40,263 bases of DNA, from positions 1-40,263 of IMG/VR virus record IMGVR_UViG_3300017745_000022. One strand, given 5' to 3'. Positions 4,582 to 32,308 of this stretch are shown piece after piece (the stretch's first letter is position 1; each line of letters opens with the position of its first letter). This stretch comes from a virus (lineage: Duplodnaviria > Caudoviricetes). Made by a program: the position numbers and the translations under genes. Below the pieces are notes generated by a model. The model searched no databases. It saw only the letters and a list, made by a program, of their open reading frames with translations, and was not told the origin of the DNA.

Positions 4582-5608
4582 AGAAATACTACAAGATTTA
4601 GGCTATATGCTCCAAGACTGTGGTTCGCATTGGAGAAGTAATGCTTTGTATAGAAGTGGAAAAAACAAAACTGCTCTTATAATATATAAAGACACTGGTG
4701 TTTGGAAAGATTTTGGCGCAGACAACGAAGCCAAACCCTTTTCTATGTTACTTAAACAAACTTTAAAAACAGAAGATCCTAAAACCATACAAAAGTATAT
4801 AAACTATATACCCAAGTCATCAGAGCCAGTAAAAGAAGTAGAAGAAAAAATACAAATGGATAAAATATACCCAGAATCTTATTTAGATAAACTTTTACCA
4901 GTCAGAGATTTTTATCTCAAGAAAAATATATCTGAAAAAACTCAAAAATTATTTAGATGTGGTTACGCTGGTGGTGGTAAAATGTATAGACGCATGGTTT
5001 TCCCTATCTATGATTTAAACAATCAAATACACGGCTTTTCTGGTAGAACTGTTGTCATTGGAGACAACATACCCAAATGGAAACATATGGGTCGCAAAAC
5101 AGATTGGGTTTACCCACATCACCTTTCTCACGATAGTATAGATGAAACTCGTGAAGTTATTTTAGTAGAGAGTATTGGTGACTGCATGGCTTTATATGAA
5201 GCTGGATTCAAAAATATTTTGATGCTTGCTGGTTTAGACATTTCGTCTAAAGTCATGTCCTACTTAAACAGTTTTGACTTAGATAGGATAATAGTGGCAA
5301 TGAATAACGACAAAGATAAAGAAACTAATTCTGGTGGTATAGCTACAATTAAAACCGTTGCTAAATTATCGCAAATATACGACCTTGATAGAATATGTGT
5401 TAACCCACCACTCGCAAATGATTTTGGCGATATGCTTGAATCTGAACCGTTTAATCTTAATATGTTTGCACAGTGGTACTCAAGAAAATGTAAATGGAAT
5501 TTAGCAGATCAAAAAACACAAGACTGGATTATAGAACAAATTAAATCAACAGACGCACTACGAAAAAACGGTAATTGTAAAAAATTAATTAAAATTTTAG
5601 ATTCATGA
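4571..5608 (+). CDS. DnaG-like DNA primase
   Basis: RMVFPI...GFSGR...PKW, TOPRIM VESIGD and NND, DFGD; overlaps dnaB. Confidence 0.85.
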   Translation: MTYKEILQDLGYMLQDCGSHWRSNALYRSGKNKTALIIYKDTGVWKDFGADNEAKPFSMLLKQTLKTEDPKTIQKYINYIPKSSEPVKEVEEKIQMDKIYPESYLDKLLPVRDFYLKKNISEKTQKLFRCGYAGGGKMYRRMVFPIYDLNNQIHGFSGRTVVIGDNIPKWKHMGRKTDWVYPHHLSHDSIDETREVILVESIGDCMALYEAGFKNILMLAGLDISSKVMSYLNSFDLDRIIVAMNNDKDKETNSGGIATIKTVAKLSQIYDLDRICVNPPLANDFGDMLESEPFNLNMFAQWYSRKCKWNLADQKTQDWIIEQIKSTDALRKNGNCKKLIKILDS

Positions 5609-5772
5609 AAAAGGTAGTAATATGGAGAGTTCTCTCAATAGTTCTTTGTACCCTAATGGCAAGGGTATGGTTTGGAGATTGGCATGTTACCCTTTTCGGT
5701 ATTTTTATTTCGTTTGTTATGACTGTAGTTCATTACTATTTCGAAAAAATTTGGGACACTTATGGAAGTTAA
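5605..5772 (+). CDS. small membrane protein, DUF2061-like
   Basis: MKKVVIWRVLSIVLCTLMARVWFGDWHVTLFGIFISFVMTVVHYYFEKIWDTYGS*; ATGA overlap with primase; WR...YY.E.IW pattern. Not in the ORF track. Confidence 0.7.
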   Translation: MKKVVIWRVLSIVLCTLMARVWFGDWHVTLFGIFISFVMTVVHYYFEKIWDTYGS

Positions 5773-6757
5773 ATTATCAGCAAGCCGTATAAAAACTGCG
5801 CAATCTTGTGGTTGGTTATATTGGTCTAAATATAAATTAAAATTACCAGAACACGGTAATGATGGCGCTAGACGAGGCACTGTTTGTCATAATGTTTTTG
5901 AGCATCTATCAAAACAAAAAACTAAAACAGAATTTAACAAAATAGTTAAAGCTAAAGACCCTTTCGCAGCTAAAGCAGTAAAAGATTTAATTATGTCTGA
6001 CGCCACAGAGCTTGGTGTTACAGATGAAGATAATATGACTCTGATTAAACAAATGATTCTCAATGGTTTGAGTTGTAATTTTCATGGAGAAGAATTAGGT
6101 ATACCAGACGAAGCTCACGCAGAGTTAGATTTTGACATAGAAAAAAATGGTTATCATATAAGAGGTTTTATAGACCAGTTGTTTTTATACAAAGACAAAA
6201 AGATCGCTATAATCAGAGACTATAAGACAAGTAAAAAAATGTTTGAAGGTAAAGAAAAAGACGACAACCTTCAAGACTATATGTATTGTTTAGCTGTTAA
6301 ACATTTATTTCCAGAGTATGTAAATAGAAATGCAGAGTTCTTGTTTTTAAAGTTCGATCTCAAGAAAAAAGGTTTACTAAAAATGAAACCTCTAGACGAA
6401 GATGATCTAGAAGGTTTTGAAATGCAACTAGCAAACATACAAGAATATTTAGAAAATTTTACAGAGTCTACAGCAAAAAGTAATTTTGCGTACGATAAGG
6501 GTTTTCCAGATGATAATACTTTTAGTGGTAGGTTACAATGTGGATTTGCAGAAAAAAAAGGTCAGTTAAAGAAAGATGGTTCTCTTATGTGGCACTGCCC
6601 TTTTAAATTTGATTTCTTTTATGTAGAAATACTAAATGAAGAGGGAGAACATATCCTTTCTTGCTTCCAAGAAGATTTTGAAAAAAGTATGGTTCCAGAA
6701 GGTGGCTCTCATTCAATAAAATATTACAAAGGTTGCCCAAAACACTTGACAAATTAA
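5762..6757 (+). CDS. RecB/Cas4-like PD-(D/E)xK exonuclease
   Basis: LSASRI...C, GTVCH, RGFID...DYKTSK, QDYMY, C-terminal cysteines. Confidence 0.85.
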   Translation: MEVKLSASRIKTAQSCGWLYWSKYKLKLPEHGNDGARRGTVCHNVFEHLSKQKTKTEFNKIVKAKDPFAAKAVKDLIMSDATELGVTDEDNMTLIKQMILNGLSCNFHGEELGIPDEAHAELDFDIEKNGYHIRGFIDQLFLYKDKKIAIIRDYKTSKKMFEGKEKDDNLQDYMYCLAVKHLFPEYVNRNAEFLFLKFDLKKKGLLKMKPLDEDDLEGFEMQLANIQEYLENFTESTAKSNFAYDKGFPDDNTFSGRLQCGFAEKKGQLKKDGSLMWHCPFKFDFFYVEILNEEGEHILSCFQEDFEKSMVPEGGSHSIKYYKGCPKHLTN

Positions 6758-6773
6758 TATTACCATCTATATT
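6746..6773 (+). promoter_or_regulatory. sigma70-like promoter TTGACA-16-TATATT (probably leaderless mRNA)
   Basis: Only 6 nt separate the -10 from the ATG at 6780. Confidence 0.65.
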
Positions 6774-6779
6774 GGTAGT

Positions 6780-7475
6780 ATGATTCCATTCTTTAAAACA
6801 CATTCATCTATAGGTAAAAGCATTTTGCGAATAGATGATGTACACGAGTTAACAAAAGACTTCGAAGAGGTTCACTTTGTTGAAGATAGTATGACAGGTT
6901 TTCCAGAAGCCTTTAGAAAGTTTGAAGATAGGTTACGTTTTGGTTTGCGTTTCTCAATGTACAATGACGATCATAGTGAAGAATCTGAAAGTAAAATGAT
7001 TGCTTTCGCAAATGGTGATTCTGGCGCAAAAGAATTATATAATCTTTATACACAACAATCAGACATAAAAATCACAAGACCTTGGGATCATACAAAAGAT
7101 TTGCAGTATGTCGTACCCTTTTACGATTCATTCTTACACAAGAACCTAACAACCTTTTCCAATTGTGTTGTTGATTTACCTCGTGATATACCTTTTATAA
7201 TAGAAGATAACAATCTTCCCTTTGATTGTTTGATTGAAGATAAAATATTAAATTATTGCAAGAATCATTTAAACGAACACTTTAATGCAAAGTCAATATA
7301 TTATAAAGATAAAGAAGATGTTTTGGCTTTCCAAACTTATAAATTAATTTGTAACCGCAGGATAGGTAGAACTTATGATCTATCGAACCCTGGACTAGAT
7401 CACTTTGGTAGTGACGAATTTTGCTTTGAATCATGGAAGAATTACTCAGATACAACTTTAAACAGCGCTACGTAG
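6780..7475 (+). CDS. stand-alone degenerate PHP domain of DNA polymerase III alpha
   Basis: KTHSSIGKSILRI, EDSMTGF, FGLRF, A..DSG.KEL, YYKDKED follow the DnaE PHP layout; lies upstream of a DnaE that lacks PHP. Confidence 0.7.
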   Translation: MIPFFKTHSSIGKSILRIDDVHELTKDFEEVHFVEDSMTGFPEAFRKFEDRLRFGLRFSMYNDDHSEESESKMIAFANGDSGAKELYNLYTQQSDIKITRPWDHTKDLQYVVPFYDSFLHKNLTTFSNCVVDLPRDIPFIIEDNNLPFDCLIEDKILNYCKNHLNEHFNAKSIYYKDKEDVLAFQTYKLICNRRIGRTYDLSNPGLDHFGSDEFCFESWKNYSDTTLNSAT

Positions 7476-8062
7476 TTTTTGATACCGAGACAGAGGGATT
7501 AAATTTAATTACCTCTAAACCTTGGCAGATAGCTTGGATCGAATGTGAAGGTAAAAAAGTTATCAAAAAACATAATCGCTTTATCAAATGGGATGACTTA
7601 AATGTCTCTCCAGATGCCGCACGAGTTACTGGATTTGATAGAAATTATTACGAATCTGTTGCGGAAGATCCAATGGTTGTTTGGAAAGACTTTGAAAAAG
7701 CCTTGTATGGCAATAACATTGTTCTTGGTCACAATATTCTTGGTTACGATATTTATATATTAGGTGTTTGGCTTAGAAATATGGGCGTGAGAATTAGTTA
7801 CGAAAATTTTATTGGCGAACTTTTAGATACAAATATTTTAGCAAAAGCTATAGCAAAAGGTGATAAGAATCCAGGTAGTGAATTACTTGCTTGGCAAATG
7901 AGATACCTACACTTTAGAGAACGTGGTTTAAAAACAAACCAGAAACATCTATTACAGCATTATAATATTGACTTTGATGAAACAAAGCTACATGATGCTT
8001 TGTACGATATAGAGATGAACTTTGAGATATTTCAAAAACAATTATGGGAATTAGAAATTTAG
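7433..8062 (+). CDS. DEDDh 3'-5' exonuclease (Pol III epsilon-like)
   Basis: ExoI FDTETEGL, ExoII GHNILGYD, ExoIII HDALYD. Confidence 0.9.
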   Translation: MEELLRYNFKQRYVVFDTETEGLNLITSKPWQIAWIECEGKKVIKKHNRFIKWDDLNVSPDAARVTGFDRNYYESVAEDPMVVWKDFEKALYGNNIVLGHNILGYDIYILGVWLRNMGVRISYENFIGELLDTNILAKAIAKGDKNPGSELLAWQMRYLHFRERGLKTNQKHLLQHYNIDFDETKLHDALYDIEMNFEIFQKQLWELEI

Positions 8063-10620
8063 AATCATTTAAGCAACCAATGCCAGTTGGCGTAAGATTA
8101 CCAGGAATTGAAGTAGAGCAAAGATTCTATGACGAGTTGGGCATTTCAAATACATCATCTAATTACGACCTGCTTCGTGAGCTATGCTTAAAAGGTGTTG
8201 AGGAAAGAGGTATTGATAAATTAGAAAATAAACAAGAGTATTACGACAGAGTGAAGATAGAATTATCTGTTTTAAAAGATTTAGGGTTTGTTGATTATAT
8301 ACTTTTAAATTGGGATGTTTTAAACTTTTGCCATGAAAATCGTATACCAACTGGGCCAGGTCGTGGTTCTGCCGCTGGTTCTTTGGTATTATTTTTATTA
8401 AAAGTTACAAATATTGACCCAATCAAATATGATCTGTTTTTTGAGCGATTTGTATCCAAAAGCAGAGCTAAAAAGACCGTTGTTGACGATATAACGTACC
8501 TAGACGGCTCTTTGTTGGCTGACGTGGACAATGACATCAGTTACGATAGAAGAGCCGAGGTAATCAAATATATTGAAGAAAAGCATAAAGGTAAGACTTG
8601 TAAAATATTAACTTTAAACACATTGAGTAGTAAATTGTGTGTAAAGGAGTGCGGAAAGATCGTGGGAGGGTTCTCAGAAGAGGACGTTAATGACATTAGC
8701 GCCTCTATACCAAAACAGTTTGGAAAGGTATTTAAGTTACAAAAAGCTTACGACGAAAGCGAGAAACTTAAAAAGTTTTGTGATGACAACCCTAAAGTAT
8801 TTAACATTGCCAGAAAACTAGAAGGATTAAACAAGAACACTGGCGTTCACCCATCGGGTATTGCGATTAGCTTCTACAATATACAAGAAGTTATGCCTAT
8901 GCAGAAAACCAATGACGGTAATTATGTATCTGGTTACGACATGAATGACGTCGCATCTTTGATGGTTAAATTCGATATCTTAGGATTGAGGACATTATCT
9001 GTTGTTTATGATACTCTTAAACAACTTAATATGGACATAGAAACTATAGATGTTGAGTCAGATAACATATATGAAAACTTCAAATTCATTGAGGCACCAA
9101 AGGGTCTCTTCCAGATTGAAGCGGATACAAACTTTAAGGCAGCTAGGAAAATTGCTCCCAGAAATCTTGAAGAACTTTCTGCTGTTGTCGCTATTGCTCG
9201 TCCTGGTGCTCTTGATTACTTAGATACATATGCAAGTTATATAAAAACTAGCGTGTTCAGTTCTGTCCACGAGTTTTTTGATGATATTTTATCTTATACT
9301 GGTGGTATTCCTTTATACCAAGAACAGTTGATGAAGATGGCTGTTAAGGTTGGATTCACACTTGATGAAGCGGAACAACTCAGACGTATTGTTGGTAAGA
9401 AAAAAGTAGATCAAATGCCAGCGTGGAAAGCTAGGATCGAAGAAAAGATTGAAGAAAATAATTTACCAAAACAAGTTGGCGATGTTCTTTGGAAAGTTGC
9501 TGAAGACTCAGCTAATTACTCATTCAATAAGTCACACTCAATTAGTTACGCTACTTTGGCGGCTATAACAACCTATTTGAAATTTAATCACTCAAAAGAG
9601 TTCTTTCTGTCTCTACTTAAAATGACTAAACATGAGCCAGATTCTCATGCCGAAATAGCTTTGATTAGTCAAGAGTTTTGTTTGTTTGATATGAAACTTT
9701 TACCACCAGATTTATCCAAATCAAATGTAGAGTTTTCTATTGAAGGTCAAAATATTAGATACGGACTAAACAGCGTAAAAGGAGTATCTGAAAAAACTTT
9801 AGAAAATGTAGTTGACTTCAGAAAAAGTGAATTACTAGAACAAAACAAATATGACGTGTTCTTATCTGCCAAAGAATCTGGTATTAATATCGGTGTTTTA
9901 TCTGGCCTTATACAAGGTGGTATGATGGACTCTTTCTGTGATAAAAGTAATGGCGTACCTAATCGTTGCAGACTTGTTTTAGAAGCTCAAGCATTTAATT
10001 TACTTACAGACAGAGAGAAGAGAAACTTTATAAGACTCGGCTCTAAATTTGATTATGATATTCTTAATTCTATAGCTTTTGTTAAAAAAGAGGCTTATCC
10101 AGCGGATGATGGGCGACCTCTTATGAAAGACTCTAGGTTTAAAACATTCAAACGTGATTATGACAAATACCGTCAAATATACGACAAAAATAAAGAGCAT
10201 TTAGTTTTCGCTAATTGGTTTTTTGAGCGTAAGTATTTAGGTTATAGTCATTCTAATGAAATTAAAAAAGTTTTTCAAGATACAAAAAACCTTGTAAATA
10301 GTTTAGAGTTAAAATCAATACAACAAAACGATCGTGTAAAATTTGTTGGTGTGGTGACAGATTGCGTGTCAAGAACAAGTCGTGCGGGCAACAAATATAT
10401 GAGAGTTGAAATACAAGATGATTATGGCAAAATAAATTTTATGATGACCAATAATAGAAGATCTGCCACGCTAGATAATTACCTTAATGAAGGTGGCAAA
10501 AAACCTAAAGAAGGTCAAATAGTTTTCATATACGGAAGCAAGGGCGAAGACATCATCTTCGGTGAAAAGCTTAATATACTTGACGAAAAAATTTACACTA
10601 GATTATCAGAAATTAAATGA
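8044..10620 (+). CDS. dnaE: DNA polymerase III alpha catalytic core (no PHP domain)
   Basis: GPGRGSAAGS, FERF, DVDND, GVHPSG, KFDILGL, FNKSHS, C-terminal OB fold. Confidence 0.95.
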   Translation: MGIRNLESFKQPMPVGVRLPGIEVEQRFYDELGISNTSSNYDLLRELCLKGVEERGIDKLENKQEYYDRVKIELSVLKDLGFVDYILLNWDVLNFCHENRIPTGPGRGSAAGSLVLFLLKVTNIDPIKYDLFFERFVSKSRAKKTVVDDITYLDGSLLADVDNDISYDRRAEVIKYIEEKHKGKTCKILTLNTLSSKLCVKECGKIVGGFSEEDVNDISASIPKQFGKVFKLQKAYDESEKLKKFCDDNPKVFNIARKLEGLNKNTGVHPSGIAISFYNIQEVMPMQKTNDGNYVSGYDMNDVASLMVKFDILGLRTLSVVYDTLKQLNMDIETIDVESDNIYENFKFIEAPKGLFQIEADTNFKAARKIAPRNLEELSAVVAIARPGALDYLDTYASYIKTSVFSSVHEFFDDILSYTGGIPLYQEQLMKMAVKVGFTLDEAEQLRRIVGKKKVDQMPAWKARIEEKIEENNLPKQVGDVLWKVAEDSANYSFNKSHSISYATLAAITTYLKFNHSKEFFLSLLKMTKHEPDSHAEIALISQEFCLFDMKLLPPDLSKSNVEFSIEGQNIRYGLNSVKGVSEKTLENVVDFRKSELLEQNKYDVFLSAKESGINIGVLSGLIQGGMMDSFCDKSNGVPNRCRLVLEAQAFNLLTDREKRNFIRLGSKFDYDILNSIAFVKKEAYPADDGRPLMKDSRFKTFKRDYDKYRQIYDKNKEHLVFANWFFERKYLGYSHSNEIKKVFQDTKNLVNSLELKSIQQNDRVKFVGVVTDCVSRTSRAGNKYMRVEIQDDYGKINFMMTNNRRSATLDNYLNEGGKKPKEGQIVFIYGSKGEDIIFGEKLNILDEKIYTRLSEIK

Positions 10621-11996
10621 ACGATTTCCAAAAATACAACTTAACACCCAACGCTCAACAAGCTATTATTAATTCACAAGAAATAGCTTCATATTATGGA
10701 CACCTAAAAGTTATAGATGTTCATTTTTTATACTCTATCTTATCTGAACCCCATAACAATATTGATCACTGCATTGAATTAAATGGATGGATAAGAGAAG
10801 GTTTTCTCCAAGCTTTAGAAATGGTTTTAACTCAGTACAAAGAACCAAAAAGAAAGAAGAAAATTTTTGCACCAGAAATATTTGAAATTTTAGATTTTGC
10901 TCAAAAATTATCAGAAAAAAATGGAGACGAATACGTTGGTCCAGACCACATCTTAATTACCATACTACAAATCAGAAAAGAACTAAATATGTTTTTTCAT
11001 GGATTAGATGTTAACGTTAAGTCTTTTTGTTCTTCTTTGTTACATATAATGAAGCACGGTATAGATTCCGCTAAAATTTATTCTGCTCCTCCACCACCCC
11101 AAGCACAACAAACAAAAACAAAAACAAAACAAGATTTAAATGACTGGTGCGAAAACTTAAATCAGAAGGTAGAAGAAAGAGGGACTTTTGAAATTTTCGG
11201 CAGAGAGAAAGAAACCGAAAGAGCTTTTGAAATATTGCTAAGAAAAAACAAAAGTAATATAATTTTAGTCGGAGAAGCTGGTGTCGGCAAAACTGCTATC
11301 GTAGAGGGTTTAGTAGAAAAAATTGTCCAAGATAAATGTCCTAAATTTTTAAAGAACAAAAAAATCTTATCTTTAGACATTACTTCTGTATTAGCTGGTA
11401 CTATGTACCGAGGACAAATGGAAGAAAAAGTAAAATCAATTATAGACAAGATACAAAATAGTGATGATTACATTCTCTTCATAGACGAGATACACACAAT
11501 CGTTGGAACAGGTAATTCTGAGGGTAGTTTGGACATAGCTAATAGTTTAAAACCAGTTTTATCTAGAAGTGGTTTCGCTTGTATAGGTGCTACTACAAAA
11601 GATGAATATGAAAAATATTTCAAAATGGATTCCGCTCTAAATCGTAGATTTGAAAAGATAGATGTGTTTGAACCAACAAAACAACAAACTTTCAAACTGT
11701 TACAAAAAGCTAAATTATCTTATGAAAAATTTCACAATGTAAAATTCAGCAATCATTCTCTCAACAAAATAATTGATCTGTGTGAAAAATATTTACCCTC
11801 TAAAAAGTTTCCAGACAAAGCTTTTGATATCATAGACGAAGCGGGAGCAAAAAGCAGAATATACAACGAAACAAAGGAGCCTAAAAAGGTTGACATGGAA
11901 ATTATATATGCTATATTTGCACAAAAGTTAAATACAGAAATTAAAAATGTCAAAAATGACTCAAATATAACAATAGAAAACAAAATAGGATTTTAA
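10617..11996 (+). CDS. ClpA/ClpC-like ATPase with double N-domain and a single AAA+ module (D1), ending in IGF
   Basis: Two Clp-N repeats, GEAGVGKT, pore loop MYRG, LFIDEIH, GATT, ALNRRF, PDKAFDIIDEA; no D2 domain. Confidence 0.9.
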   Translation: MNDFQKYNLTPNAQQAIINSQEIASYYGHLKVIDVHFLYSILSEPHNNIDHCIELNGWIREGFLQALEMVLTQYKEPKRKKKIFAPEIFEILDFAQKLSEKNGDEYVGPDHILITILQIRKELNMFFHGLDVNVKSFCSSLLHIMKHGIDSAKIYSAPPPPQAQQTKTKTKQDLNDWCENLNQKVEERGTFEIFGREKETERAFEILLRKNKSNIILVGEAGVGKTAIVEGLVEKIVQDKCPKFLKNKKILSLDITSVLAGTMYRGQMEEKVKSIIDKIQNSDDYILFIDEIHTIVGTGNSEGSLDIANSLKPVLSRSGFACIGATTKDEYEKYFKMDSALNRRFEKIDVFEPTKQQTFKLLQKAKLSYEKFHNVKFSNHSLNKIIDLCEKYLPSKKFPDKAFDIIDEAGAKSRIYNETKEPKKVDMEIIYAIFAQKLNTEIKNVKNDSNITIENKIGF

Positions 11997-11998
11997 TC

Positions 11999-12208
11999 AT
12001 GAGAAAAATCAATCGTATAGTTAAAACAATGAAAGGTAGTAAGGGTCGTTTTTTTGGCCTCACTACAAAGAGCGGAGATCAATTCAACGCTCAGTTTGTC
12101 AAAGAAACACCGCAATATGTTGTTATCAATGACAGAAATGCTAAAAAAATTAGAAAGTTCGCCAAATCAAGTCTGAGTGGAATCAATCTTGGTGAAGTAA
12201 AAATCTAA
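11999..12208 (+). CDS. small basic protein, possible Sm/Hfq-like fold
   Basis: 69 aa, Lys/Arg-rich, helix followed by five short strands. Confidence 0.6.
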   Translation: MRKINRIVKTMKGSKGRFFGLTTKSGDQFNAQFVKETPQYVVINDRNAKKIRKFAKSSLSGINLGEVKI

Positions 12209-12212
12209 TTTC

Positions 12213-12239
12213 AAAGGTGGTAGAAATACCACCTTTTTT
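12213..12239 (+). terminator. Rho-independent terminator
   Basis: 10-bp stem AAAGGTGGTA/TACCACCTTT, GAAA tetraloop, T run. Confidence 0.9.
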
Positions 12240-12248
12240 ATTTAATAT
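12221..12248 (+). promoter_or_regulatory. sigma70-like promoter TAGAAA-16-TAATAT overlapping a terminator
   Basis: The -35 spans the hairpin loop; 5 nt between the -10 and the ATG at 12254. Confidence 0.45.
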
Positions 12249-12253
12249 TAATT

Positions 12254-13330
12254 ATGGATAATGAAAATATAGATTTTGAAGATCTACTAGTTAATAGGAT
12301 TGTTGAGTCTAGTCAAGACGTCACACTTTCAAGTTTGGAAAAAGAATATCTCGAAGAAGTATTAAAAACAGATAAGTTTCTATCAAAATATGTAAGTTCT
12401 GCAGAATTTTTTAATTCAATTGAGGTAATCGAAAAAACCTTTTCTTATTATATTTATACATTTAAAACAAAAGAAGTAAAACATTATCTAAAGATAGGAA
12501 CCGAAGCGGATAAAATTATTTTATCAAAAGAACACAATGTTATTAAAAATTTAAAAGATCCAGATATTGCGCCTAAAATTGTTAATTTTGGTTACGGATG
12601 TAATTATTCATACTTATTAACTAACTATCAAAGTGCTCCAACTATATCTGAAATAGGTATTGGAGAAATAATAACCAATTACAAAAAACCTTTTTTAAAA
12701 TTTTTATCTAATTTTCACAATTCTAATATCAAAAGAAAAAATCAAAAATACGATTTTTTACAAGATTTATATGACACTTGTGATTTTTCATACATTTTGG
12801 GTGATGAAAACGTTAGATTACTCTTGGAAAACGAATTAACTTGTAAACTATTAAGAAGCGTAGAAGAAATAATTAATATTTTACAAACTCAAGCAGATCA
12901 TATTGAGAAAAAAGCTTGCGTTTGCCATCTAGATCTAAATGATAAAAATATTATATTCAATTACGAAAAATTTAAACTTGTTAATTTTAACAATTCTTAT
13001 AATCTTGACCCTCATTGGGATATGGCTTTTTTATCTATTAATTTAGGTCTTGATAAATTTCTATCAGTAGAAGAGGATTTTGTTAATATATATAATTCTT
13101 ACTCAAAAAAAAATAAGTTATCTTATAGTAGTTTACAAGATTTTAAAAGTTGTGCATTTAAAATTATTTTATTAAAAATAATCACATCTTTTATTTATAG
13201 ATTAGCTGATATTAAATTAGAAGATGACATGATTGATTTAACAAAAAATTATATAAACATCAGACCTTTTATTCAACATGAAATGAGTGCATATTTAGAT
13301 GTTCTAGATCAATTTTTTTACCAAACCTAA
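12254..13330 (+). CDS. APH/choline-kinase-like phosphotransferase fold protein
   Basis: YLKI, KEH, APK, CHLDLNDKNII, LVNF, DPHWDMA. Confidence 0.75.
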   Translation: MDNENIDFEDLLVNRIVESSQDVTLSSLEKEYLEEVLKTDKFLSKYVSSAEFFNSIEVIEKTFSYYIYTFKTKEVKHYLKIGTEADKIILSKEHNVIKNLKDPDIAPKIVNFGYGCNYSYLLTNYQSAPTISEIGIGEIITNYKKPFLKFLSNFHNSNIKRKNQKYDFLQDLYDTCDFSYILGDENVRLLLENELTCKLLRSVEEIINILQTQADHIEKKACVCHLDLNDKNIIFNYEKFKLVNFNNSYNLDPHWDMAFLSINLGLDKFLSVEEDFVNIYNSYSKKNKLSYSSLQDFKSCAFKIILLKIITSFIYRLADIKLEDDMIDLTKNYINIRPFIQHEMSAYLDVLDQFFYQT

Positions 13331-14094
13331 TGAAGATATATTTTGATCATATTTGTGGCAAACAAGCTGATACTGATTTTCTTCACATGCTTGTTAGTGC
13401 TACTGTTAGTAGAGGTGAGGAACAGGAAGCGTTAGATAACGGTTGGTGCCCATCAAATATATGGTACAAACAAGATACAAACTTTGTCAAAAAAAATAAA
13501 ATTATTTGGTACCAAAGTCGTCAAACCAGATTAAATTTAAGTAAATATAGCGAAACCAAAAATGAAAAAAAGACTTGGAAAAAAATAGCCAAAGCTAATC
13601 TTGAAGTAGAAATAACTACCGATCCAAATTTTATAAAATTATATAAAATTTATAAAAATTATGTGCAGTACAAAAATTTTTCTTCAGTGCTGTCGCAAAA
13701 AGAGTTTATAGAAGCATACGAGCGTGGTGATGACATTTTTTTAATTTATGGAGACGTAGCCTTTAGTGTTGTACAAAAGGTTGGCCAAAGCTTAATTTCT
13801 CATCAATTTTGTTGGGGGTATGAAGACAAGGTTTTAGGTTTGGGTAGATTTTCCACGTACAAAGAAATATCTTTAGCTAAAGACTTGGGTTTAAAATACC
13901 TATATCTTGGACCAAGTTATGAAAATCATGGTAAATACAAAAGCTCATTTCCAGGATTTGAGTTTTGGACAGGAAGAAAATGGTGCACGGATGAGTCAAA
14001 ATATTTTGACCTATTAGAAAAAGACGAAAAAATAACTTCTGTAGAAGATTTAACTGATTCTTATGACTCATTCTTTGATTCTTTTTCCGTATAA
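13330..14094 (+). CDS. ATE1/Bpt-like aminoacyl-tRNA-protein transferase
   Basis: LDNGW, TRLNL..Y, LY.IYKNY, LGLGRFSTYKEISLAKDLGLKYLYLG..Y....KYKSSF match the ATE_N/ATE_C signature. Confidence 0.8.
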   Translation: MKIYFDHICGKQADTDFLHMLVSATVSRGEEQEALDNGWCPSNIWYKQDTNFVKKNKIIWYQSRQTRLNLSKYSETKNEKKTWKKIAKANLEVEITTDPNFIKLYKIYKNYVQYKNFSSVLSQKEFIEAYERGDDIFLIYGDVAFSVVQKVGQSLISHQFCWGYEDKVLGLGRFSTYKEISLAKDLGLKYLYLGPSYENHGKYKSSFPGFEFWTGRKWCTDESKYFDLLEKDEKITSVEDLTDSYDSFFDSFSV

Positions 14095-14717
14095 TCTAAG
14101 TCTGTAAATTCCGTCATAAAAGAATTATCTGTGTATTTGACTCTTTTGTTTTCAACACTGTAAAAATTTTGGTCTATTTCATAGCCTGGATTCTTAGTTA
14201 AAGGTTCTTCTACCCAAGCGTCATCATGCCATACGATTCTATTGTTGGGGTATGCGTAAAAGTTTCCATTTTCCATTTTAAACATATGAGCGCATTTGTG
14301 TTCTGGGTGTTCAGAAAAATTTGTATCTAAAATTGCTTTGTTTTCCCAACCCCAATCTATTGTAAACATATATTCTCCCCATTCTCTTTTGTTTGAAGGG
14401 GTTATAAGGACGCCTCTAAGACCTTTGAGTCTAGATCTTACCCCTACATCAACATAGGGTGAAAAACAGTCCCAATACATAGCTTCTTCTAACGGCACTG
14501 GGTCACATTCTTTCCAACATAAGGCTGTAATTGGTCTTCTTGTCCAATTTACTCCATTATCTAAATAACACTCAAATAAAGGAACTCTTTTTTCCATTGA
14601 CGTGACAGAGTGCACGTCACACATTGTATATTCTTTATGTCCTTTTTTGTGATTATATAAATATTCGTTCCTAATAAAACATGTAAATGTTGGTAAATTA
14701 TGAGTTAGATAAGGCAT
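14061..14717 (-). CDS. hypothetical phage protein
   Basis: 218-aa ORF rich in Trp, His and Cys; lone minus-strand gene in a plus-strand block. Confidence 0.75.
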   Translation of the reverse strand: MPYLTHNLPTFTCFIRNEYLYNHKKGHKEYTMCDVHSVTSMEKRVPLFECYLDNGVNWTRRPITALCWKECDPVPLEEAMYWDCFSPYVDVGVRSRLKGLRGVLITPSNKREWGEYMFTIDWGWENKAILDTNFSEHPEHKCAHMFKMENGNFYAYPNNRIVWHDDAWVEEPLTKNPGYEIDQNFYSVENKRVKYTDNSFMTEFTDLDYTEKESKNES

Positions 14718-18010: not shown

Positions 18011-18734
18011 TCCAGAAAAATTTAAAAGAAACGAACATGGTCTTCTAGAGTCAGTTGATTATGTTTTTAATGACGATGGTTCTGTAAATTGGAGAGCCAT
18101 GATTACACCAGAGCATCTTTATCCAAATAGAGATTGGTTTGAGCGTAGAAAAATGCCAGTTCCAAGTTCTATAGAAGGTCTTGATGATGGCCAACTTTTA
18201 ATAAAGTTGAGTGGAATTAAAGAGTTAGCTAAACTTCGTGGATTTCATAACGTAACTTATGACGTTACAGAATCTTCGGACAGTAGAGTTGTTGTTCAAT
18301 GTATGATTAATTGGCTTGAAAATTACGAAAGTAACGGAACACAAACTTTCGCTTCTATTGCCAATGCAACAACAAATAATACAAATGGTTTTGCGGCAAA
18401 ATTTTTAGAATGTATTGCTGAAAATCGTGCGTTTATTCGTTGTGTTCGTAATTTTCTAAATATCCATATTGTTGGTGCTGATGAAATAGATAGCTCTAAA
18501 GATAAAGCTCCAATCGAAACACCTACAGAATCAACCGATATTAGCCCTCAAGGCATCTTAGCTAAGAATCTTAAGGATAAGTTAGGTGTTAGTAATTTTG
18601 ACGGCTTTAAAGACTGGTTGCGTGCTTTATACTTAGATAAAAAGTATGAAGGTGATGCAGAGCAGGTTAAGTCTTGGACAAAGTTCAAAGACATTCCAGC
18701 TAAAGAATGTAGAAAACTACTTAAATTAATCTGA
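18003..18734 (+). CDS. Rad52/Sak-like single-strand annealing protein
   Basis: IKLSGIKELA..RG, three strands, then IAENRAFIRCVRNFLNI..VGADEI. Confidence 0.6.
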   Translation: MSSPEKFKRNEHGLLESVDYVFNDDGSVNWRAMITPEHLYPNRDWFERRKMPVPSSIEGLDDGQLLIKLSGIKELAKLRGFHNVTYDVTESSDSRVVVQCMINWLENYESNGTQTFASIANATTNNTNGFAAKFLECIAENRAFIRCVRNFLNIHIVGADEIDSSKDKAPIETPTESTDISPQGILAKNLKDKLGVSNFDGFKDWLRALYLDKKYEGDAEQVKSWTKFKDIPAKECRKLLKLI

Positions 18735-21700
18735 TAACTTACCTTTGTAAGTGGCAGTGTCTCTAAAATCTTCAGACGTTAGGTGAAAGTGTAATTCAAC
18801 CTCATCAGAATCTATAAACATATTTTTGGCGCTAAACTTACTATAGGTGTATTTATTTGATTTATAGTTTTGCTCTATCGCTACAAAATCATTCTCAGAT
18901 ACTCTGATAAATATATCTAGGTAAGATTCACTAGTTTCTAAATCTATTGGAATATCATATTTATTTCTTATATCAAATTCAAATTCTAAAGTTTTATTTG
19001 GAGATACGCCACTACCTACACCCATTCCGTTTTTTCTTTCATATGTTTTATCTAAGGAATTAGTTAAGTCTATATTTTTAATTATATCTTTTATATAAGT
19101 AATGTTAGCAAAAGGTACGTCAACTTTTAATACAACAGATTCTGAAGATTCTGGATTTTTTAATGAATTAACTTCTACCTTGTATGTTCCAGCATTTAAA
19201 TTTTTAATAGAATAAGCAGTTTGGTGACTACTGAAATCAGTCTTTCTAAATTCTTTTTGGTAATATGGCCCAGAAATCGTTTCGTTAATCGCTGTGACTC
19301 TGTATTTTGTTTCGTTACTAGATGGATTACCGAATATTGTACCAGCTAATGTATAAGAACCATTTGATTGTAAAGTTAAGGTTTCAGTAACTGTATTTGG
19401 TGCTAATGGTCTATTTACTTGATGATCCATAATACCAATATTATATTTTGTTTCAGCTGTGTCTAAATCGTTTGATTCTATTGTATCAAATTTACCAGAA
19501 TTATACTGTAACGCACTAATTTCATACAAATTGTCTTCTACTGGTGAAATATTTATAATTTTATAAAACTCATTTACATTATTTTTTAATTCAACACTAA
19601 AGGTTGACCCATGTGGTACTCCAGTGATATCATTATTTAAATCTAAATAAACTCTTAAAAAATGGTCTCTAGGAAATTCTTTTACACCACTAATCTTAAA
19701 TTCAGTAACTTGTTTTGTTTCCAAATTTCTCATTTCATCTATAGGAACAACACCATCATATTTGTTTTGTTCTGAACCAAAACTTTCAAGAAAATTATGA
19801 TTGTAAACATCGTAAAGATTTTTGATCTCATTTTGCTCTTTGTTATTGTAAGCGTATATATTTCCAATATCTTCAACTGTTGCTGTAAATAGAGTTTCTC
19901 CTTCAGTTGCCCTTTTGTCTGTTTTTATTGATTCAATATTTACCGAATTAGGTATGTCAAAATATGGTGTTACAGCTTGTGTGCCATCTCCAGTTTCTAT
20001 TTCTAGTATGTTTCCGTGATTAATTTCAAAGTTCTTTAAATCGTCATCAATTCTTACGATATCTCCTGGTGTTAAAAATGTAGATTCAACTCCAGCTTGA
20101 AATGTCACCATTTCAGTTTCTAATTTATTACTTAACAATAAATATTTTCCTAAACGTTTGGCTTGAGATTTTGATGTGCAACCAATACCATTAGATTTAT
20201 GTATTATAATTCCATGGTTTCTAATCGATTCCTCATCTTCAATGTATTCAATTTTTTGATTGTAATTATCTTTTGCATCTGCATATGTAACTTCGACACG
20301 ATTAAATCTCGCGTTAGCTAAAATATCTCCATAATTAAATATCCCATCAAACACGTTACTGTTATTAAAGAAACCATTTATTTCTTTAGGTTTATCAACA
20401 GCAAATGTTAAAGAAGCTCCATCCCAATATGACATGCCTCTAAAAATACTAGCTATGTTAGATAAAACATTATATGCATTTTGTGAATTGGTAAGCATTA
20501 AGTTAGCCGCAAATCTAGGTTCTAATCCACCTTGAGAATCTGGGACACCGTCAAAAAATCCTTCGTCATCAACAGTATCAGCATATCTAGCTGAATCATA
20601 TAATTTAAATATATTTATATCCTGTCTGTCATCTAATCTATTACCAATTCCATATATCGGATTGACCATTAAGTCGTAGAGTATCCATGCTGGATTGTCA
20701 GTCCAAGCTAATTTAAAATTTCCATCCCACTCACCTATGTATACTTGCTCTCTATTTTTGCCAAAAGCAAATGAAGCATCAGTTACTAAATTACTTGAAT
20801 TTGAAGGGTCTATAGTGGTGCCTTTAAATACTCCATGTGCTCCCGCAAACCTATCTCTAAATACATAGTTGTTTGTTGTTGATTCAATAACTGTACCATC
20901 GTAATGATGTAACAATTGATTATTTTTTTTGATTTTTACGTCGGCAATCATAACACCGTTTTGCACCTTGTTTGTACCACCCCTTATAGAACCTATTTCA
21001 ACAAAATTATTAGATGTGTTGTCCATGTTCATAGCTCTTCCAGATCTTGATGCTATTGCTACTTTATTATTTTCTGCATCTGAATTTTTACTCTCTATAA
21101 GTTGACCTGATGAATCATAAACATTTAACTCTCCAATAATATGAGATTGGGTAACCTTCATTTTAATTTCGTAAACATTACCTAAATCAGTAATTCTGTT
21201 AGCTATAGAATCAAAATTTATACTGCCTAATCCATGATATATCAATCTGAATTGTTTCGTAGCTTGAGTGTATGATATTTCAATTCTTTTTGTATTTGAA
21301 GAGGTCGCACTTAAGTAAACTCTAATTCCATTAGTAGTTAAAACACTATTATTAAATTTAGTTTTTAAAGAAAATTCACAATTGTCTGTACCAATGATTA
21401 CTTTGTTAGGTACCTGTATAAATTGCCCACCCTTAAATTTAAATATATTTCTTCTTCCATAAGCGTTAGCATTATCAACTATTCTTTTGTCAGACCCATC
21501 ACCCCTAAGAGGAGAATAATTAGTTGGCACTAAAACCTTTTTCAATCTACATTGGAAACTTCTAGATGGTAGAGAATTAAATGCCCTTGCATCAAAAATA
21601 CATTTAGATAAAGCAGACAAAGGATAAGTATAATCATCATTTAATTTCTCCGTTACATAATTTAAATAACAAACATCACTTTTTAAGACAGAATCTGTTT

Positions 21701-24602
21701 CTCTTGTAGTTTTACTTATAGTTACCAATCGTTTTAAATTTTTCCAACTATCTCCAGGAAATAATTTGTCTCCCTTATTGCCTAAATTAAATTCGGTTAT
21801 TAAATTATCCTCTAATCCAAGAATGCTATTTGAGTCTAAAGTAAAATTCTTTAATTGTTTATTTTGTGGTATAGTAATGTTTATAGTCTTATTGTATGCG
21901 GAAGTGGAAATTCCCCTGAAAGAAAAAGTTCTACTTCTACTAAAGTTTTCTAAAATATACTGCTGTAATGTTATTCCAGCTTCTAAAGCTTCTCTTAAAT
22001 TTGCATATCTAGTTATAAACCTGCTGACGTCCAAAGATCCTGGATTTATACTAACAATTGGATCGCTAATAAACCAACCATCTTCAGGTCTTGCATTTAC
22101 TTCTTTTGTTACGCCAAACAATAATCCATTACTAATACCATGTTCTCCCGCTGCAACCGCCTCTATAAAGTTGGCGTACCCCCCAGCTAAAATACTTACA
22201 TTTTGCTGATATATCAAGGTTGTAATACTTTTAGCGGTTCGTGAATCAGAAGGATATTCAATAAGCGTACTTGTACCATCGCCATTACTCCTATCTTGCT
22301 TAGCATAATTTTGAAATATTTTTTTTGTGGTATCAGTTTCTGGTACAACACTATATAAATCTTGTAAATCACTCCCTCTCGTGCTCAAAGAGAAAGCCTC
22401 AAATTGAAAAATATTTCCATAGGTTACATCTTGCATGCCTCCCAATTTTGTTCCAAAATTAGCTTGCGCTCTATTATCATATCTCTGTCTAACTCTACCA
22501 GCAATAAGGGACTCGTCTTTGGGCCTATACACACCAGCATCAACAGTATCTTGACCAGCTGGACCTTCTCCGTAATCCCTATATCTCCATTCAACTATTG
22601 ATAAAAATCTAGCTCCTACATGAGAGTCGGATGCAATACCGAACGGCTTTAAAGAGTTGCCTTTACCAACAAGATGATATTGTCGAGTACTTACGTCTTG
22701 TAAAAAAATAGCTCTTTCACCTACTCCATTATAAGCTATACTCCCTGCTGTACCTTCTGCTAAATCCACTTGACCTATGGTTATTTTATACATAGGATTA
22801 TTTTGATCAGACATCCAAGTTATATCCCCTTCAACGGGTTGACTGGTTGTATGGTGATCGGTAATTGGACCAGATCCATCTGGTGGCCTAAATGCAAAAA
22901 AAGAACTAGGCTGGTTTTTAAAGTAACTAACTTGTGTTGGCATTTGTACATCCGTGCCTCTTAAAATATCATCAGACTCTTTATGAGTAGGATGTCTAAA
23001 ACCAGAAATTGTTAAATAATCTGCATGATTTGGATCAGTTTCAGGCGAAACTTGAACTATAAGAGCATCAAGTATTTCTATAAATGGATATTGTTGTTCC
23101 AAAACACTAATCTCTATGCCACCAATATAATTAGTACTAATATTATCTACTAAATTATCTACGGTTTCATATTTTGTTTCGATTCGAAATCCAACATCAT
23201 TTTCAATTCTCCTTCCAGCATCGTCTCCATCAGCCACCGTATCAAATAAACTATTTATTGAAATTGTCACTGAAACTGATTCAACATTCCAATCATCTAC
23301 AGCATGAGTTAAACTATAAGTATTGTGATTCCTTGGTTTATTAGCGTTCCAATCAGCAAAATCACCTAACCCTCTTATGTCTTTGTTTAAATCGGCATTA
23401 AAAGAGCCCAATAATCTTCTTGAGTAACTTATATCTCTACTTTGATTTAAGTTTAAAGGGGCCTGTTCTTCGTAACCATTTCTAAAATCAAAATCTATAT
23501 TATTATAATTATATGTACCTTCAATGTCATTGTTGAATGCAATTTTAATTGGAGCTTCGTTAATTTTACCTATTTCTGGATCTTTTTGATTTTTACTGGC
23601 TCTGTGTATAGCTAATCTACCAGCAGTGCCAGATCGAGTAAAAACATCATAACCTCCATCAATACCATTTTGAATTTTTGTGTTAAAACTAGAGTCGCCA
23701 AGTGGTACAAAAAATTTACCAGTGTCAAAAGCGCTCCCGTTTAATCTAGTGTTATTTCCTATATAGAAAAACATAACACCACCACCAACAAAGTCACTTA
23801 TTCTATATTTATTTCCTGCTTGATTACCAGTTAATGAACCAGAATTTGCGATGTTATTATAATTTGTCGCAGAATTAAATTTTGGCACAACAAAAAATAA
23901 ACTCTTAGGTACGTTAATTGTATCACCATTTTCTAGTTCTATACTTCTTTCTTCAATACCATTATGAAAATATGTATCAAAAGATATTAAACTTGTGATC
24001 GTACTCAATGATCCATTAACTTCTCTTCTAAAAAAGTGTCCATCATTTTCATCAAAAAGATTTTCTGTTGTAAATTGTATAAAACCAAAATTCTTTGTTT
24101 GTGGATTTGAATCTATGTAATTTTCTAATTCTGTTAATACTGTATCAATTTCAGATTGTTTACTTGCATATAAAGTATCATTACCAGGATGCCCAACAGT
24201 AGAAGTTGTTACTGCATTACCCAAATTAGTTCTTATTTGATTGAGAGCTGTTCTTATATTTGTTGACGTAAGTTCGTGTATATTTTGTATATTTGAGTGG
24301 GGCAAAAATTTTTGATGCACACTAGATATGGTTCCGTCTGTGTTACGCAGATCTCCAGTATTTATTTCTTTTATAGGTACATCGTCTAAATATATCGCTT
24401 CTAAAAATTTATAATCTTTAGCTCTCCTACCATCTAAAGTTACTAATCCGTCAATTGGACCCTCGCTTATTAGATCGATTACAGAAACAGATTGGGAAGA
24501 CTGTAAATTTTCAGTTCTTGCTGGCGGTTTCAATCCAACATGACCTAAAATAGGTATTTCTTTGCCCAATTTGGTTTTATAATATTCCTTACGATCCGCC
24601 AT
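18726..24602 (-). CDS. tail tip / host-specificity protein J (paralogue 2)
   Basis: DLISEGPIDGLV, VPTNY, WDGNFKLAWTDNPAW, EPRF, GCTSKSQAKRLGKY, PGD, YEISALQY, terminal FN3-like domain. Confidence 0.9.
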   Translation of the reverse strand: MADRKEYYKTKLGKEIPILGHVGLKPPARTENLQSSQSVSVIDLISEGPIDGLVTLDGRRAKDYKFLEAIYLDDVPIKEINTGDLRNTDGTISSVHQKFLPHSNIQNIHELTSTNIRTALNQIRTNLGNAVTTSTVGHPGNDTLYASKQSEIDTVLTELENYIDSNPQTKNFGFIQFTTENLFDENDGHFFRREVNGSLSTITSLISFDTYFHNGIEERSIELENGDTINVPKSLFFVVPKFNSATNYNNIANSGSLTGNQAGNKYRISDFVGGGVMFFYIGNNTRLNGSAFDTGKFFVPLGDSSFNTKIQNGIDGGYDVFTRSGTAGRLAIHRASKNQKDPEIGKINEAPIKIAFNNDIEGTYNYNNIDFDFRNGYEEQAPLNLNQSRDISYSRRLLGSFNADLNKDIRGLGDFADWNANKPRNHNTYSLTHAVDDWNVESVSVTISINSLFDTVADGDDAGRRIENDVGFRIETKYETVDNLVDNISTNYIGGIEISVLEQQYPFIEILDALIVQVSPETDPNHADYLTISGFRHPTHKESDDILRGTDVQMPTQVSYFKNQPSSFFAFRPPDGSGPITDHHTTSQPVEGDITWMSDQNNPMYKITIGQVDLAEGTAGSIAYNGVGERAIFLQDVSTRQYHLVGKGNSLKPFGIASDSHVGARFLSIVEWRYRDYGEGPAGQDTVDAGVYRPKDESLIAGRVRQRYDNRAQANFGTKLGGMQDVTYGNIFQFEAFSLSTRGSDLQDLYSVVPETDTTKKIFQNYAKQDRSNGDGTSTLIEYPSDSRTAKSITTLIYQQNVSILAGGYANFIEAVAAGEHGISNGLLFGVTKEVNARPEDGWFISDPIVSINPGSLDVSRFITRYANLREALEAGITLQQYILENFSRSRTFSFRGISTSAYNKTINITIPQNKQLKNFTLDSNSILGLEDNLITEFNLGNKGDKLFPGDSWKNLKRLVTISKTTRETDSVLKSDVCYLNYVTEKLNDDYTYPLSALSKCIFDARAFNSLPSRSFQCRLKKVLVPTNYSPLRGDGSDKRIVDNANAYGRRNIFKFKGGQFIQVPNKVIIGTDNCEFSLKTKFNNSVLTTNGIRVYLSATSSNTKRIEISYTQATKQFRLIYHGLGSINFDSIANRITDLGNVYEIKMKVTQSHIIGELNVYDSSGQLIESKNSDAENNKVAIASRSGRAMNMDNTSNNFVEIGSIRGGTNKVQNGVMIADVKIKKNNQLLHHYDGTVIESTTNNYVFRDRFAGAHGVFKGTTIDPSNSSNLVTDASFAFGKNREQVYIGEWDGNFKLAWTDNPAWILYDLMVNPIYGIGNRLDDRQDINIFKLYDSARYADTVDDEGFFDGVPDSQGGLEPRFAANLMLTNSQNAYNVLSNIASIFRGMSYWDGASLTFAVDKPKEINGFFNNSNVFDGIFNYGDILANARFNRVEVTYADAKDNYNQKIEYIEDEESIRNHGIIIHKSNGIGCTSKSQAKRLGKYLLLSNKLETEMVTFQAGVESTFLTPGDIVRIDDDLKNFEINHGNILEIETGDGTQAVTPYFDIPNSVNIESIKTDKRATEGETLFTATVEDIGNIYAYNNKEQNEIKNLYDVYNHNFLESFGSEQNKYDGVVPIDEMRNLETKQVTEFKISGVKEFPRDHFLRVYLDLNNDITGVPHGSTFSVELKNNVNEFYKIINISPVEDNLYEISALQYNSGKFDTIESNDLDTAETKYNIGIMDHQVNRPLAPNTVTETLTLQSNGSYTLAGTIFGNPSSNETKYRVTAINETISGPYYQKEFRKTDFSSHQTAYSIKNLNAGTYKVEVNSLKNPESSESVVLKVDVPFANITYIKDIIKNIDLTNSLDKTYERKNGMGVGSGVSPNKTLEFEFDIRNKYDIPIDLETSESYLDIFIRVSENDFVAIEQNYKSNKYTYSKFSAKNMFIDSDEVELHFHLTSEDFRDTATYKGKLSD

Positions 24603-24616
24603 ATTACTATTTACAC
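24603..24616 (-). promoter_or_regulatory. GTGTAA-N8-ATG motif upstream of J2
   Basis: Minus strand reads GTGTAA ATAGTAAT ATG. Confidence 0.65.
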
Positions 24617-25029
24617 ATTTTGACTTTTATTTTCATATGATCTTTGATAATACCTCTTATTTTCAAAAAAACATGTATTCCAAAATTTTTTATATTTTTT
24701 TTAAAAATATTTTGAATTTGTTCCTTTTTTAGGTTCAATTCTAAGGTATTATCATCAAGTATTTCGTGATGCAACTCCTTAAAGTCAGTATCAAAAAATT
24801 GAAAATCTAAACACAAATCTTTATTTTTTTCTTGAAATTTGTCGTAATTTGCGGCTTTATTTACTAAAAAGTTAAAACTCAAGGTACAATAATCTTGCAT
24901 CGAAACCTCACATACTCTAAAATTTGAACTTTGTACAATCCAAGCGTCGACAGATATTAAATTTGAAAAAGATAATTTTTCCATCAAATTTGGTTTAATA
25001 GATATTGTTTTTCTTAACATATTACTCAA
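24607..25029 (-). CDS. hypothetical protein between the two J genes
   Basis: 140-aa ORF overlapping the J1 stop. Confidence 0.6.
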   Translation of the reverse strand: MSNMLRKTISIKPNLMEKLSFSNLISVDAWIVQSSNFRVCEVSMQDYCTLSFNFLVNKAANYDKFQEKNKDLCLDFQFFDTDFKELHHEILDDNTLELNLKKEQIQNIFKKNIKNFGIHVFLKIRGIIKDHMKIKVKMCK

Positions 25030-31925: not shown

Positions 31926-32308
31926 TTTAAAACTTCTTTCAACTCCTCTAAATGTTTTGGATCTGCATCGCTAACTTCTGGCACGTGCACGTGGAATTTA
32001 TCTTTTTTTAACGAATAGATAATAAATGGATAACAGATTAAATCTGAAGTTTTTTCATCATATTCTGATGGTTTTTCAGTTCCTCTTGTATGTGAATGAT
32101 AAATTCCAACAAGATTGTATTTTTTCTTAAAGAACAGGAAATCTTTTGAAGGTATATAAAATTCTTTATCTGGATTTAAAGATCTATTTTTAACTGATCT
32201 CATTTTTAATTGGTTATCATCCTCAAAAATAAACCCACAAACTTCATTTGTTGTATCTTTTGCGCAGTCAGCTATTATTTCTTCTTTTAAATTTATTTTA
32301 GTATCCAT
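31922..32308 (-). CDS. tail assembly protein K, JAB/MPN metalloprotease domain only
   Basis: EVCGF and HSH-x7-S-x2-D. Start at 32308 (MDTKINL) preferred because it gives a short overlap with L. Confidence 0.85.
   Translation of the reverse strand: MDTKINLKEEIIADCAKDTTNEVCGFIFEDDNQLKMRSVKNRSLNPDKEFYIPSKDFLFFKKKYNLVGIYHSHTRGTEKPSEYDEKTSDLICYPFIIYSLKKDKFHVHVPEVSDADPKHLEELKEVLK

Follow-up and report, generated by a model that had tools for sequence, protein, structure and literature searches.

A one-ring ClpC derivative with a terminal IGF tripeptide, a predicted pseudokinase and an ATE1-like transferase at a dnaE-linked phage locus

Layout and setting of the locus

The stretch of DNA analysed here, hereafter the window, comprises positions 1 to 40,263 of the IMG/VR virus record IMGVR_UViG_3300017745_000022 (Duplodnaviria; Caudoviricetes) and is a phage fragment. 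It encodes RecA, DnaB, DnaG, DnaE, a glycosyltransferase, and lambda-like tail genes, and the sequencing runs in which it was found are labelled viral or seawater metagenome. Relatives of this phage reach 113 kb, with an estimated completeness of 83%. Downstream of dnaE, a gene for a Clp ATPase with a single ring is followed by genes for a small basic protein, an APH-fold protein, and a transferase related to ATE1, the latter facing the gene of a small-beta-barrel protein (Table 1).

Table 1. Features of the clp-transferase locus (positions refer to the window)
Feature	Position	Strand	Evidence
One-ring ClpC derivative, 459 aa	10617..11996	+	Pfam, alignment to ClpC
Clp C-terminal Ile-Gly-Phe (IGF), predicted ClpP-docking tripeptide	11985..11993	+	51/51 complete one-ring relatives
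Small basic protein, 69 aa, no assigned function	11999..12208	+	Present in 43/55 Clp loci
Intrinsic-terminator-like hairpin and T-run	12213..12241	+	Tied to the 69-aa gene
APH/choline-kinase-fold predicted pseudokinase, 358 aa, fast-evolving	12254..13330	+	Profile matches, residue conservation
Compact ATE1-like aminoacyl-tRNA transferase, 254 aa, arginine-type donor pocket, accessory	13330..14094	+	Pfam, model, alignment
Tandem small-beta-barrel (SH3/Tudor-like) protein, 218 aa, usual transferase neighbour	14061..14717	-	Model, synteny

An original prediction had placed three genes here, for a ClpA/C-like unfoldase, an APH-fold protein, and an ATE1/Bpt-family transferase, and had read them as a phage-encoded kit for targeted proteolysis. 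The three ORFs were recovered at the expected places, as were the one-base overlap of the APH and transferase genes (TAATG, 13328-13332) and the terminator-like hairpin with its T-run between the Clp-side genes and the APH gene (fold z -2.8). Two genes were absent from this prediction, namely the 69-aa ORF and the 218-aa ORF, which is convergent to the transferase gene and overlaps its 3' end by 34 nt; nor did it mention the IGF at the Clp C-terminus. On the other side, the Clp start overlaps the dnaE stop, and the order dnaE-clp holds without exception across the 55 related Clp loci and 6/6 more distant ones. Since a contig from a separate seawater study spans positions 11368-13900 with 5 differences from the window, running from the 3' end of clp across the 69-aa gene, the hairpin, and the APH gene into the transferase gene, most of which it includes, the arrangement is no assembly artefact; a contig from a further study covers 11217-12174 with 0 differences.

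The one-ring Clp and its APH-fold neighbour

The Clp protein exceeded the Pfam cut-offs for AAA, AAA_lid_9, and Clp_N, which bears out the domains first assigned to it. Its alignment with B. subtilis ClpC covers only residues 6-417 of the latter (E 3e-75); with phmmer, the ClpC alignment begins at query residue 9 and the ClpA alignment only at residue 142, while the TIGR02639 score reaches 333 bits against a cut-off of 993. An N-domain (residues ca. 1-150) precedes Walker A (219-226), the pore-loop residue Tyr264, Walker B (289-291), and the Arg343-Arg344 pair; the 459-aa reading frame comes to its end behind the first AAA+ module, and a second module is missing. The description of a ClpA/C-like unfoldase with intact N-domains can thus be kept for the ClpC type and for the N-domain fold, but neither for ClpA nor for the ligand pockets, which are altered (see below).

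A pattern scan based on the ATPase core, in which the tail was not used, retrieved 58 loci, comprising 50 complete one-ring proteins, one cut by the contig end, four full-length syntenic proteins, and three that were unrelated. With the window, this gave 51 complete one-ring proteins (457-502 aa) forming 28 groups at 90% identity, and 31 representatives were used for residue invariance and for the Clp tree. The Walker A Lys, the Walker B Asp-Glu, and the Arg343-Arg344 pair do not vary, and an aromatic residue, Tyr or Phe, occupies the pore-loop position in 31/31. The M-domain is missing in 13/51, including the window's protein. The four syntenic loci (dnaE-clp-small-APH) encode a full-length ClpC of 801-802 aa with an SMGF loop in its second ring, and comparison with these points to loss of the second ring in the one-ring Clp. 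Among more distant full-length ClpC proteins (n = 6), an MGF or IGF loop was found in three, and the pattern matched no loop in the other three.

Like the ClpC of ClpCP (B. subtilis 3j3s, S. aureus 6em8), the phage protein has a double-repeat N-domain, a first AAA+ module with its catalytic motifs, and a phi-GF tripeptide. In contrast to ClpC, it is phage-encoded and without a second AAA+ module, its tripeptide is C-terminal rather than in the second-ring loop, and it combines altered phospho-arginine pockets with an M-domain missing in 13/51. With ClpX, it shares a single ATPase ring and the IGF as predicted route to ClpP, but its ring is the first module of ClpC, its N-domain is that of ClpC, and its IGF is terminal. 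ClpX consists of a zinc-binding N-domain and a second-ring-type module, both absent from the phage Clp, and in known ClpP partners the docking loop belongs to the ring of ClpX or, in ClpA and ClpC, to the second ring. By its predicted architecture, the protein is a ClpX-like layout built from ClpC parts, falling outside class I Hsp100 for want of the second ring.

The tripeptide IGF, followed by 0-2 residues, ends all 51 complete one-ring proteins, and also 17/17 proteins of a separate database search, whose set may overlap with ours. By comparison, only 3 of the 1980 other distinct ORFs of the examined loci end in IGF, and these three belong to one family. The spacer between the last lid helix and IGF is 18 residues in 48/51 proteins, 20 in one, and unmatched in two, and the surrounding tail varies while the tripeptide is kept. 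IGF or phi-GF loops dock in hydrophobic clefts of ClpP, and mutation of the loop abolishes binding (PMC12521514, PMC9035409). A docking of the one-ring Clp on ClpP through its C-terminal IGF is considered likely, and we infer from the conserved motifs a working one-ring translocase that docks by its tail. Consistent with the original prediction, no clpS or clpP family match was found among the 36 proteins of the window, and the search beyond it gave 0/13 among distinct partial or complete virus records. Five of the 13 have a completeness of 90% or more, but none of these five is from the one-ring clade, whose best record is 83% complete. With no clpP or clpS in these phage records, the peptidase would be that of the host.

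The same tail could serve a different end, namely that the six IGF tails of a hexamer displace host ClpX or ClpC or hold ClpP open in the manner of acyldepsipeptides, so that phage proteins are shielded or host proteolysis is poisoned rather than chosen substrates fed. Its invariance would suit such a role, as would the absence of the second ring, the one through which coupling to ClpP normally occurs, and small molecules at the same clefts are described as displacing ATPases and deregulating ClpP (PMC9035409). We regard this as unlikely, however, given that the conserved Walker motifs, arginine pair, and pore-loop aromatic residue argue for a working translocase and not for a passive cap. Quite unlikely is a role without ClpP, in which the Clp would remodel or disassemble the phage replisome or other complexes, with IGF binding another partner or its own ring; the fixed position behind dnaE, with overlapping start and stop, and the lack of a phage clpP are in its favour, but the exact docking tripeptide is kept amid a varying tail, and full-length relatives carry the equivalent loop.

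Both phospho-arginine pockets of the N-domain are remodelled. ClpC Glu32 is replaced by Val, Leu, or Ile, and Glu106 by Asp, while Arg9 and Arg83, which we take to have roles in these pockets of ClpC, become Ser, Thr, or Asn and an invariant Glu87, respectively. Thr31 corresponds to an invariant Asp34. Glu32 and Glu106 are crucial phospho-arginine determinants of ClpC, and their mutation, or loss of M-domain contacts, frees ClpC from its resting state (PMC12583610). Because these determinants are altered, the reading of phospho-degrons by the one-ring Clp is unlikely, and its activity without adaptors appears a fair inference.

The APH-fold protein fell below the Pfam APH cut-off (E 0.0013), but its family profile matches APH(3') and choline kinases (E 6e-6 to 3e-5), in agreement with the Atlas search, so that the fold first proposed for it is borne out. 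It shares with these enzymes the fold, the beta-3 Lys, and the helix-C Glu (Lys80 and Glu93, invariant in the 31 representatives), and differs from them by an Asn for the Mg-binding Asp in 31/31 and by a catalytic Asp kept in only 8/31, including the window's copy, which retains Asp227 and Asn232. The protein is thereby a predicted pseudokinase, and it changes fast, with 22-34% identity between phages whose DnaE are 77-95% identical. An active small-molecule or protein kinase, making a phospho-degron for the Clp, would fit the invariant Lys80 and Glu93 and the Asp227 and Asn232 of the window's copy; in the face of the lost Mg-binding Asp, the mostly lost catalytic Asp, and Clp pockets devoid of the Glu32/Glu106 determinants, we find it scarcely credible. 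The phospho-degron idea of the original prediction was abandoned on these grounds, and also for the reason that the APH fold is not of the McsB type. From its position and fast change, our guess is that the protein may serve the Clp as an adaptor or sense a ligand for it. Its gene was found in 48/50 loci reaching the next conserved gene, one copy being displaced by 4 kb, and in 4/4 close full-length-Clp loci.

Between these two genes, the 69-aa protein had no significant Pfam, PHROG, or PDB match, and an Sm/Hfq-like fold suspected for it found no support in the searches. A hairpin resembling that of the window occurred in 22/22 examined loci with the 69-aa gene; in loci without it (n = 6), the Clp stop lies -1 to 18 nt from the APH start. 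In most relatives, a GTGTAA motif lies between the terminator and the APH gene, directly 3' of the former; the window has a variant of it. The same motif lies ca. 14 nt before start codons elsewhere in the window, at 2765 and 38472 (+) and at 14752, 24616, and 33367 (-), and at many sites in L238-L243. It may represent a phage promoter giving near-leaderless transcripts. A sigma-like protein is encoded by G006.

The ATE1-like transferase and its barrel neighbour

The transferase scored 29 bits against Pfam ATE_C (cut-off 25), as expected from the original prediction. Its structural model (pLDDT 95.9) best matched ATE1 (8tzv, 7wfx, 8e3s; Foldseek E 5e-8, Z 16.4, rmsd 3.9, 220 aligned), followed by other aminoacyl-tRNA transferases (Z 13-14). 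Yeast Ate1 residues 255, 260, 273, 277, 289, 303, and 304 correspond to phage Ser157, Trp162, Ser175, Glu179, Leu191, Tyr203, and Lys204. In a 74-row alignment, Glu179 is kept in 68, Lys204 in 73, and Tyr203 in 63 sequences. According to PMC9351520, Ate1 Glu277 is needed for arginine recognition, Lys304, Tyr303, and Arg80 are essential, and Bpt has Ala, Ala, Gln, and Leu at the donor-pocket positions. Three of the four residues of the acidic donor pocket of Ate1 (Ser255, Ser273, Glu277, Tyr289) are kept, the fourth being Leu191, and Ala168, Ala185, Gln189, and Leu201 of Bpt thus correspond to Ser, Ser, Glu, and Leu in the phage enzyme. No Arg occurs at the position of Ate1 Arg80, which was mapped by motif: Gly38-Trp39 is followed by Cys40-Pro41 (mostly Leu-Pro in the family). 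Arg64 and Arg67 are each kept in 72/74, and Arg64 might substitute for Arg80. The alignment contains no conserved Cys pairs for a four-Cys Zn/Fe-S site.

These features place the protein, by sequence and model, in the ATE1/Bpt superfamily and in neither the ATE1 nor the Bpt family. It shares with eukaryotic ATE1 the equivalents of Ser255, Trp260, Ser273, Glu277, Tyr303, and Lys304, as well as a basic helix, but is viral, half as large, and devoid of the four-Cys metal site and of an Arg80 equivalent, with Leu for Tyr289. With bacterial Bpt, it has in common a similar size, the ATE_C domain, and Leu at the Leu201 position, but it has Glu for Gln189 and Ser for Ala168 and Ala185, does not keep the acidic-N-terminus pocket, and scored 38 bits against a Bpt NCBIfam cut-off of 170. 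Since both the Tyr-Lys catalytic pair and a Glu pocket of the arginine type are kept, the enzyme is not a leucine-adding Bpt, and the leucine transfer first proposed for it was rejected on the donor-pocket residues; the ATE fold and the catalytic pair are what survives of that assignment. We predict an active enzyme whose amino-acid substrate is basic and most probably arginine. A tRNA-Arg is among the eight tRNAs of G006, but it provides no evidence for arginylation, as G006 has no transferase.

Database searches revealed relatives of the transferase in about 565 viral stretches, the best 80 of which were examined, and seven genome-bin matches from various unrelated taxa, with identities of 23-39%. 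Among cultured phages, there was no match to the transferase, and those to the Clp were only distant. A more distant ATE-like group (P0157, P0172, P0176, P0182, P0196, P0204, P0212), which has the Cys-free N-terminus in common with the phage enzymes but not the donor-pocket Glu, falls together on one side of a branch. In larger members of the window's phage family (L196, L212, L214, L215, L218-L220, L223, L230), an AdoMet-decarboxylase-like gene lies just 5' of the transferase, with a QueF-like gene near the pair in three loci; this neighbour hints at amino-acid transfer and decarboxylation on a non-protein acceptor.

The barrel gene adjoins the transferase in 65/92 contigs, 53 in tandem and 12 convergent. 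Its family carries a "PurM" or "ferredoxin" label in cyanophage and pelagiphage records (112 matches). The protein had no Pfam or NCBIfam match, and no usable match was obtained in the ESM Atlas search. As its model shows two small beta-barrels that best match Tudor/SH3-like folds (Z at most 7), these labels are argued to be wrong. Compared with a 70-100 aa protein found beside five other transferases, the profile comparison gave a probability of 0.65% (E 0.09), although the relationship looks plausible by eye. A divergent "PurM" barrel copy (22-26%) lies 3' of the APH gene, with no transferase, in L109-L111, L114, L115, L117, L133, L135-L137, and L141.

Co-occurrence and biological meaning

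The transferase was found in 12/50 one-ring-Clp loci (9/28 groups). On the tree of the 31 representatives, its state changes six times, five of them forced by starred branches, with a mean of 8 for shuffled states, and five one-ring-Clp records (53-83% complete) have no transferase anywhere, positive controls being detected. The slot 3' of the APH gene is empty, holds a lone divergent barrel gene, or holds the transferase with the barrel gene, and the latter pair is inverted as a block once (L009). Starting from the transferase, a one-ring Clp occurs in the fetched flank of 11/92 contigs, many of which are short, and at 50% identity the transferases form 11 groups, four with a barrel and one with a one-ring Clp. 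When 21 other records with a transferase were searched over their whole length, 14 had no Clp, including two that are at least 90% complete; the complete phage records G005 and G014 have a transferase and no Clp. Two neighbouring modules are likely because gain and loss of the transferase among relatives do not follow the Clp. The union of degron writer and unfoldase proved to be the weakest part of the original prediction: its genes occur largely independently among relatives, and a single kit was rejected on the patchy presence of the transferase and the changes on the tree, together with the L009 inversion and the Clp-less G005 and G014. Of the idea that a phage unfoldase redirects host ClpP alongside a degron writer, the predicted use of host ClpP remains, on account of the conserved terminal IGF.

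The kit can be updated by making the writer an optional add-on: the transferase would write an N-terminal Arg, and the one-ring Clp would read this tag and feed the tagged proteins to host ClpP, with recognition either direct, in the charge-reversed pocket of the N-domain, or mediated by Aat and ClpS of the host. In line with this, transferase and Clp genes are adjacent on the same strand in 9/28 Clp groups, the transferase is also found in six larger family members that have a full-length ClpC, and Asp34 and Glu87 in the former phospho-arginine pocket might accommodate a basic ligand. In bacteria, Arg counts among the secondary destabilising residues (PMC8138137). However, the altered pocket is invariant (31/31) in relatives with and without the transferase alike, the transferase is missing in 38/50 loci and distant from Clp in the larger phages, it also occurs in the Clp-less complete records, the Arg80 acceptor residue is not kept, and no clpS was found in the 13 records. 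We consider both versions very unlikely. More doubtful still is a phage-run arginine N-degron pathway in a bacterium without ClpS or McsB, in which a Tudor-like barrel would aim a eukaryote-style transferase, the charge-reversed pocket of the one-ring ClpC would read the tag, and tagged proteins would be threaded into host ClpP by way of the IGF tails.

The reading we favour, and hold to be reasonably probable, is that two separate modules abut at this locus, one made of the IGF-tailed one-ring ClpC and the predicted pseudokinase, the other an accessory ATE1-like transferase with its barrel protein. Several observations weigh against it. On the ClpP side, the terminal tripeptide differs from the usual mid-loop one, and the second ring, with which the contacts of the ClpP N-terminal hairpin are normally made (PMC12521514), is missing. 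As for the first module, 5/6 more distant full-length-ClpC stretches have no APH gene beside Clp, a conserved terminator divides the two genes in most relatives, and their link may reflect plain synteny of a conserved block whose downstream genes are equally constant. The second module is no tighter, with 27/92 transferase contigs (five of which end early) lacking the barrel, and a dependence that is one-way because the barrel occurs without the transferase in 40/56 loci, the transferase being present in 16. Nor is the separation of the modules complete: the transferase recurs within the window's phage family and is butted to the APH gene in 7/9 examined junctions, and, as the main result against independence, a full-length Clp is present in 7/21 other transferase-bearing records, and in 4/6 of those at least 90% complete. 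Six of these seven are phages of the dnaE-clpC family to which the window belongs, and in them 19-55 kb separate the transferase from Clp. The seventh, a 187-kb phage record (L043/L044), encodes at 5554-7608 a 684-aa Clp with both rings and no N-domain, 2.4 kb from a distant transferase.

Under the two-module reading, the one-ring Clp would hexamerise, its six IGF tails would dock in the hydrophobic clefts of ClpP, and the first ring alone would thread substrates in the style of ClpX. With its resting-state contacts lost, it would be active without host adaptors or McsB, and the choice of targets, for instance host or defence proteins, would fall to its N-domain, possibly via the fast-changing pseudokinase. 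The transferase would move Arg from tRNA onto an acceptor, with the barrel protein as acceptor or targeting partner.

Other genes of the window also deserve mention. Between recA and an endonuclease gene, positions 1604-2317 encode a signal-peptide protein with a C-terminal Phe, outer-membrane-beta-barrel-like, for which no family match was found and whose 107 relatives have no assigned name. The PHP-like, exonuclease, and polymerase parts of DnaE are each encoded by a gene of their own (6780-10620); some relatives have insertions between the parts, while others encode a 1262-aa DnaE (L154) or two pieces (L156). At 18726-32356 (-) lies a tandem arrangement of tail genes, of which two are tail-J-like (1958 and 1840 aa) and two tail-assembly I-like.

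A precedent is offered by the SPO1 phage protein Gp53, described in PMC6873191 as an adaptor-like modulator of host ClpCP. Both would be phage proteins acting on a host Clp protease, as predicted here; in contrast to Gp53, which serves host ClpC as an adaptor, the window phage supplies its own ATPase. The literature searched, with most subscription papers outside its scope, described no phage ATE/Bpt and no one-ring Clp with a terminal IGF. The occurrence of an ATE1-like enzyme with an arginine-type pocket throughout so many viral stretches points to tRNA-dependent arginylation in phage-infected bacteria. A natural ATPase with the first ring only and a tail tripeptide offers a direct test of whether this ring can power degradation by itself, and the one-ring Clp could serve as a compact scaffold for targeted degradation in bacteria. 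If the reading proposed for it is true, it would represent a phage-supplied, adaptor-free route for the hijacking of host ClpP.

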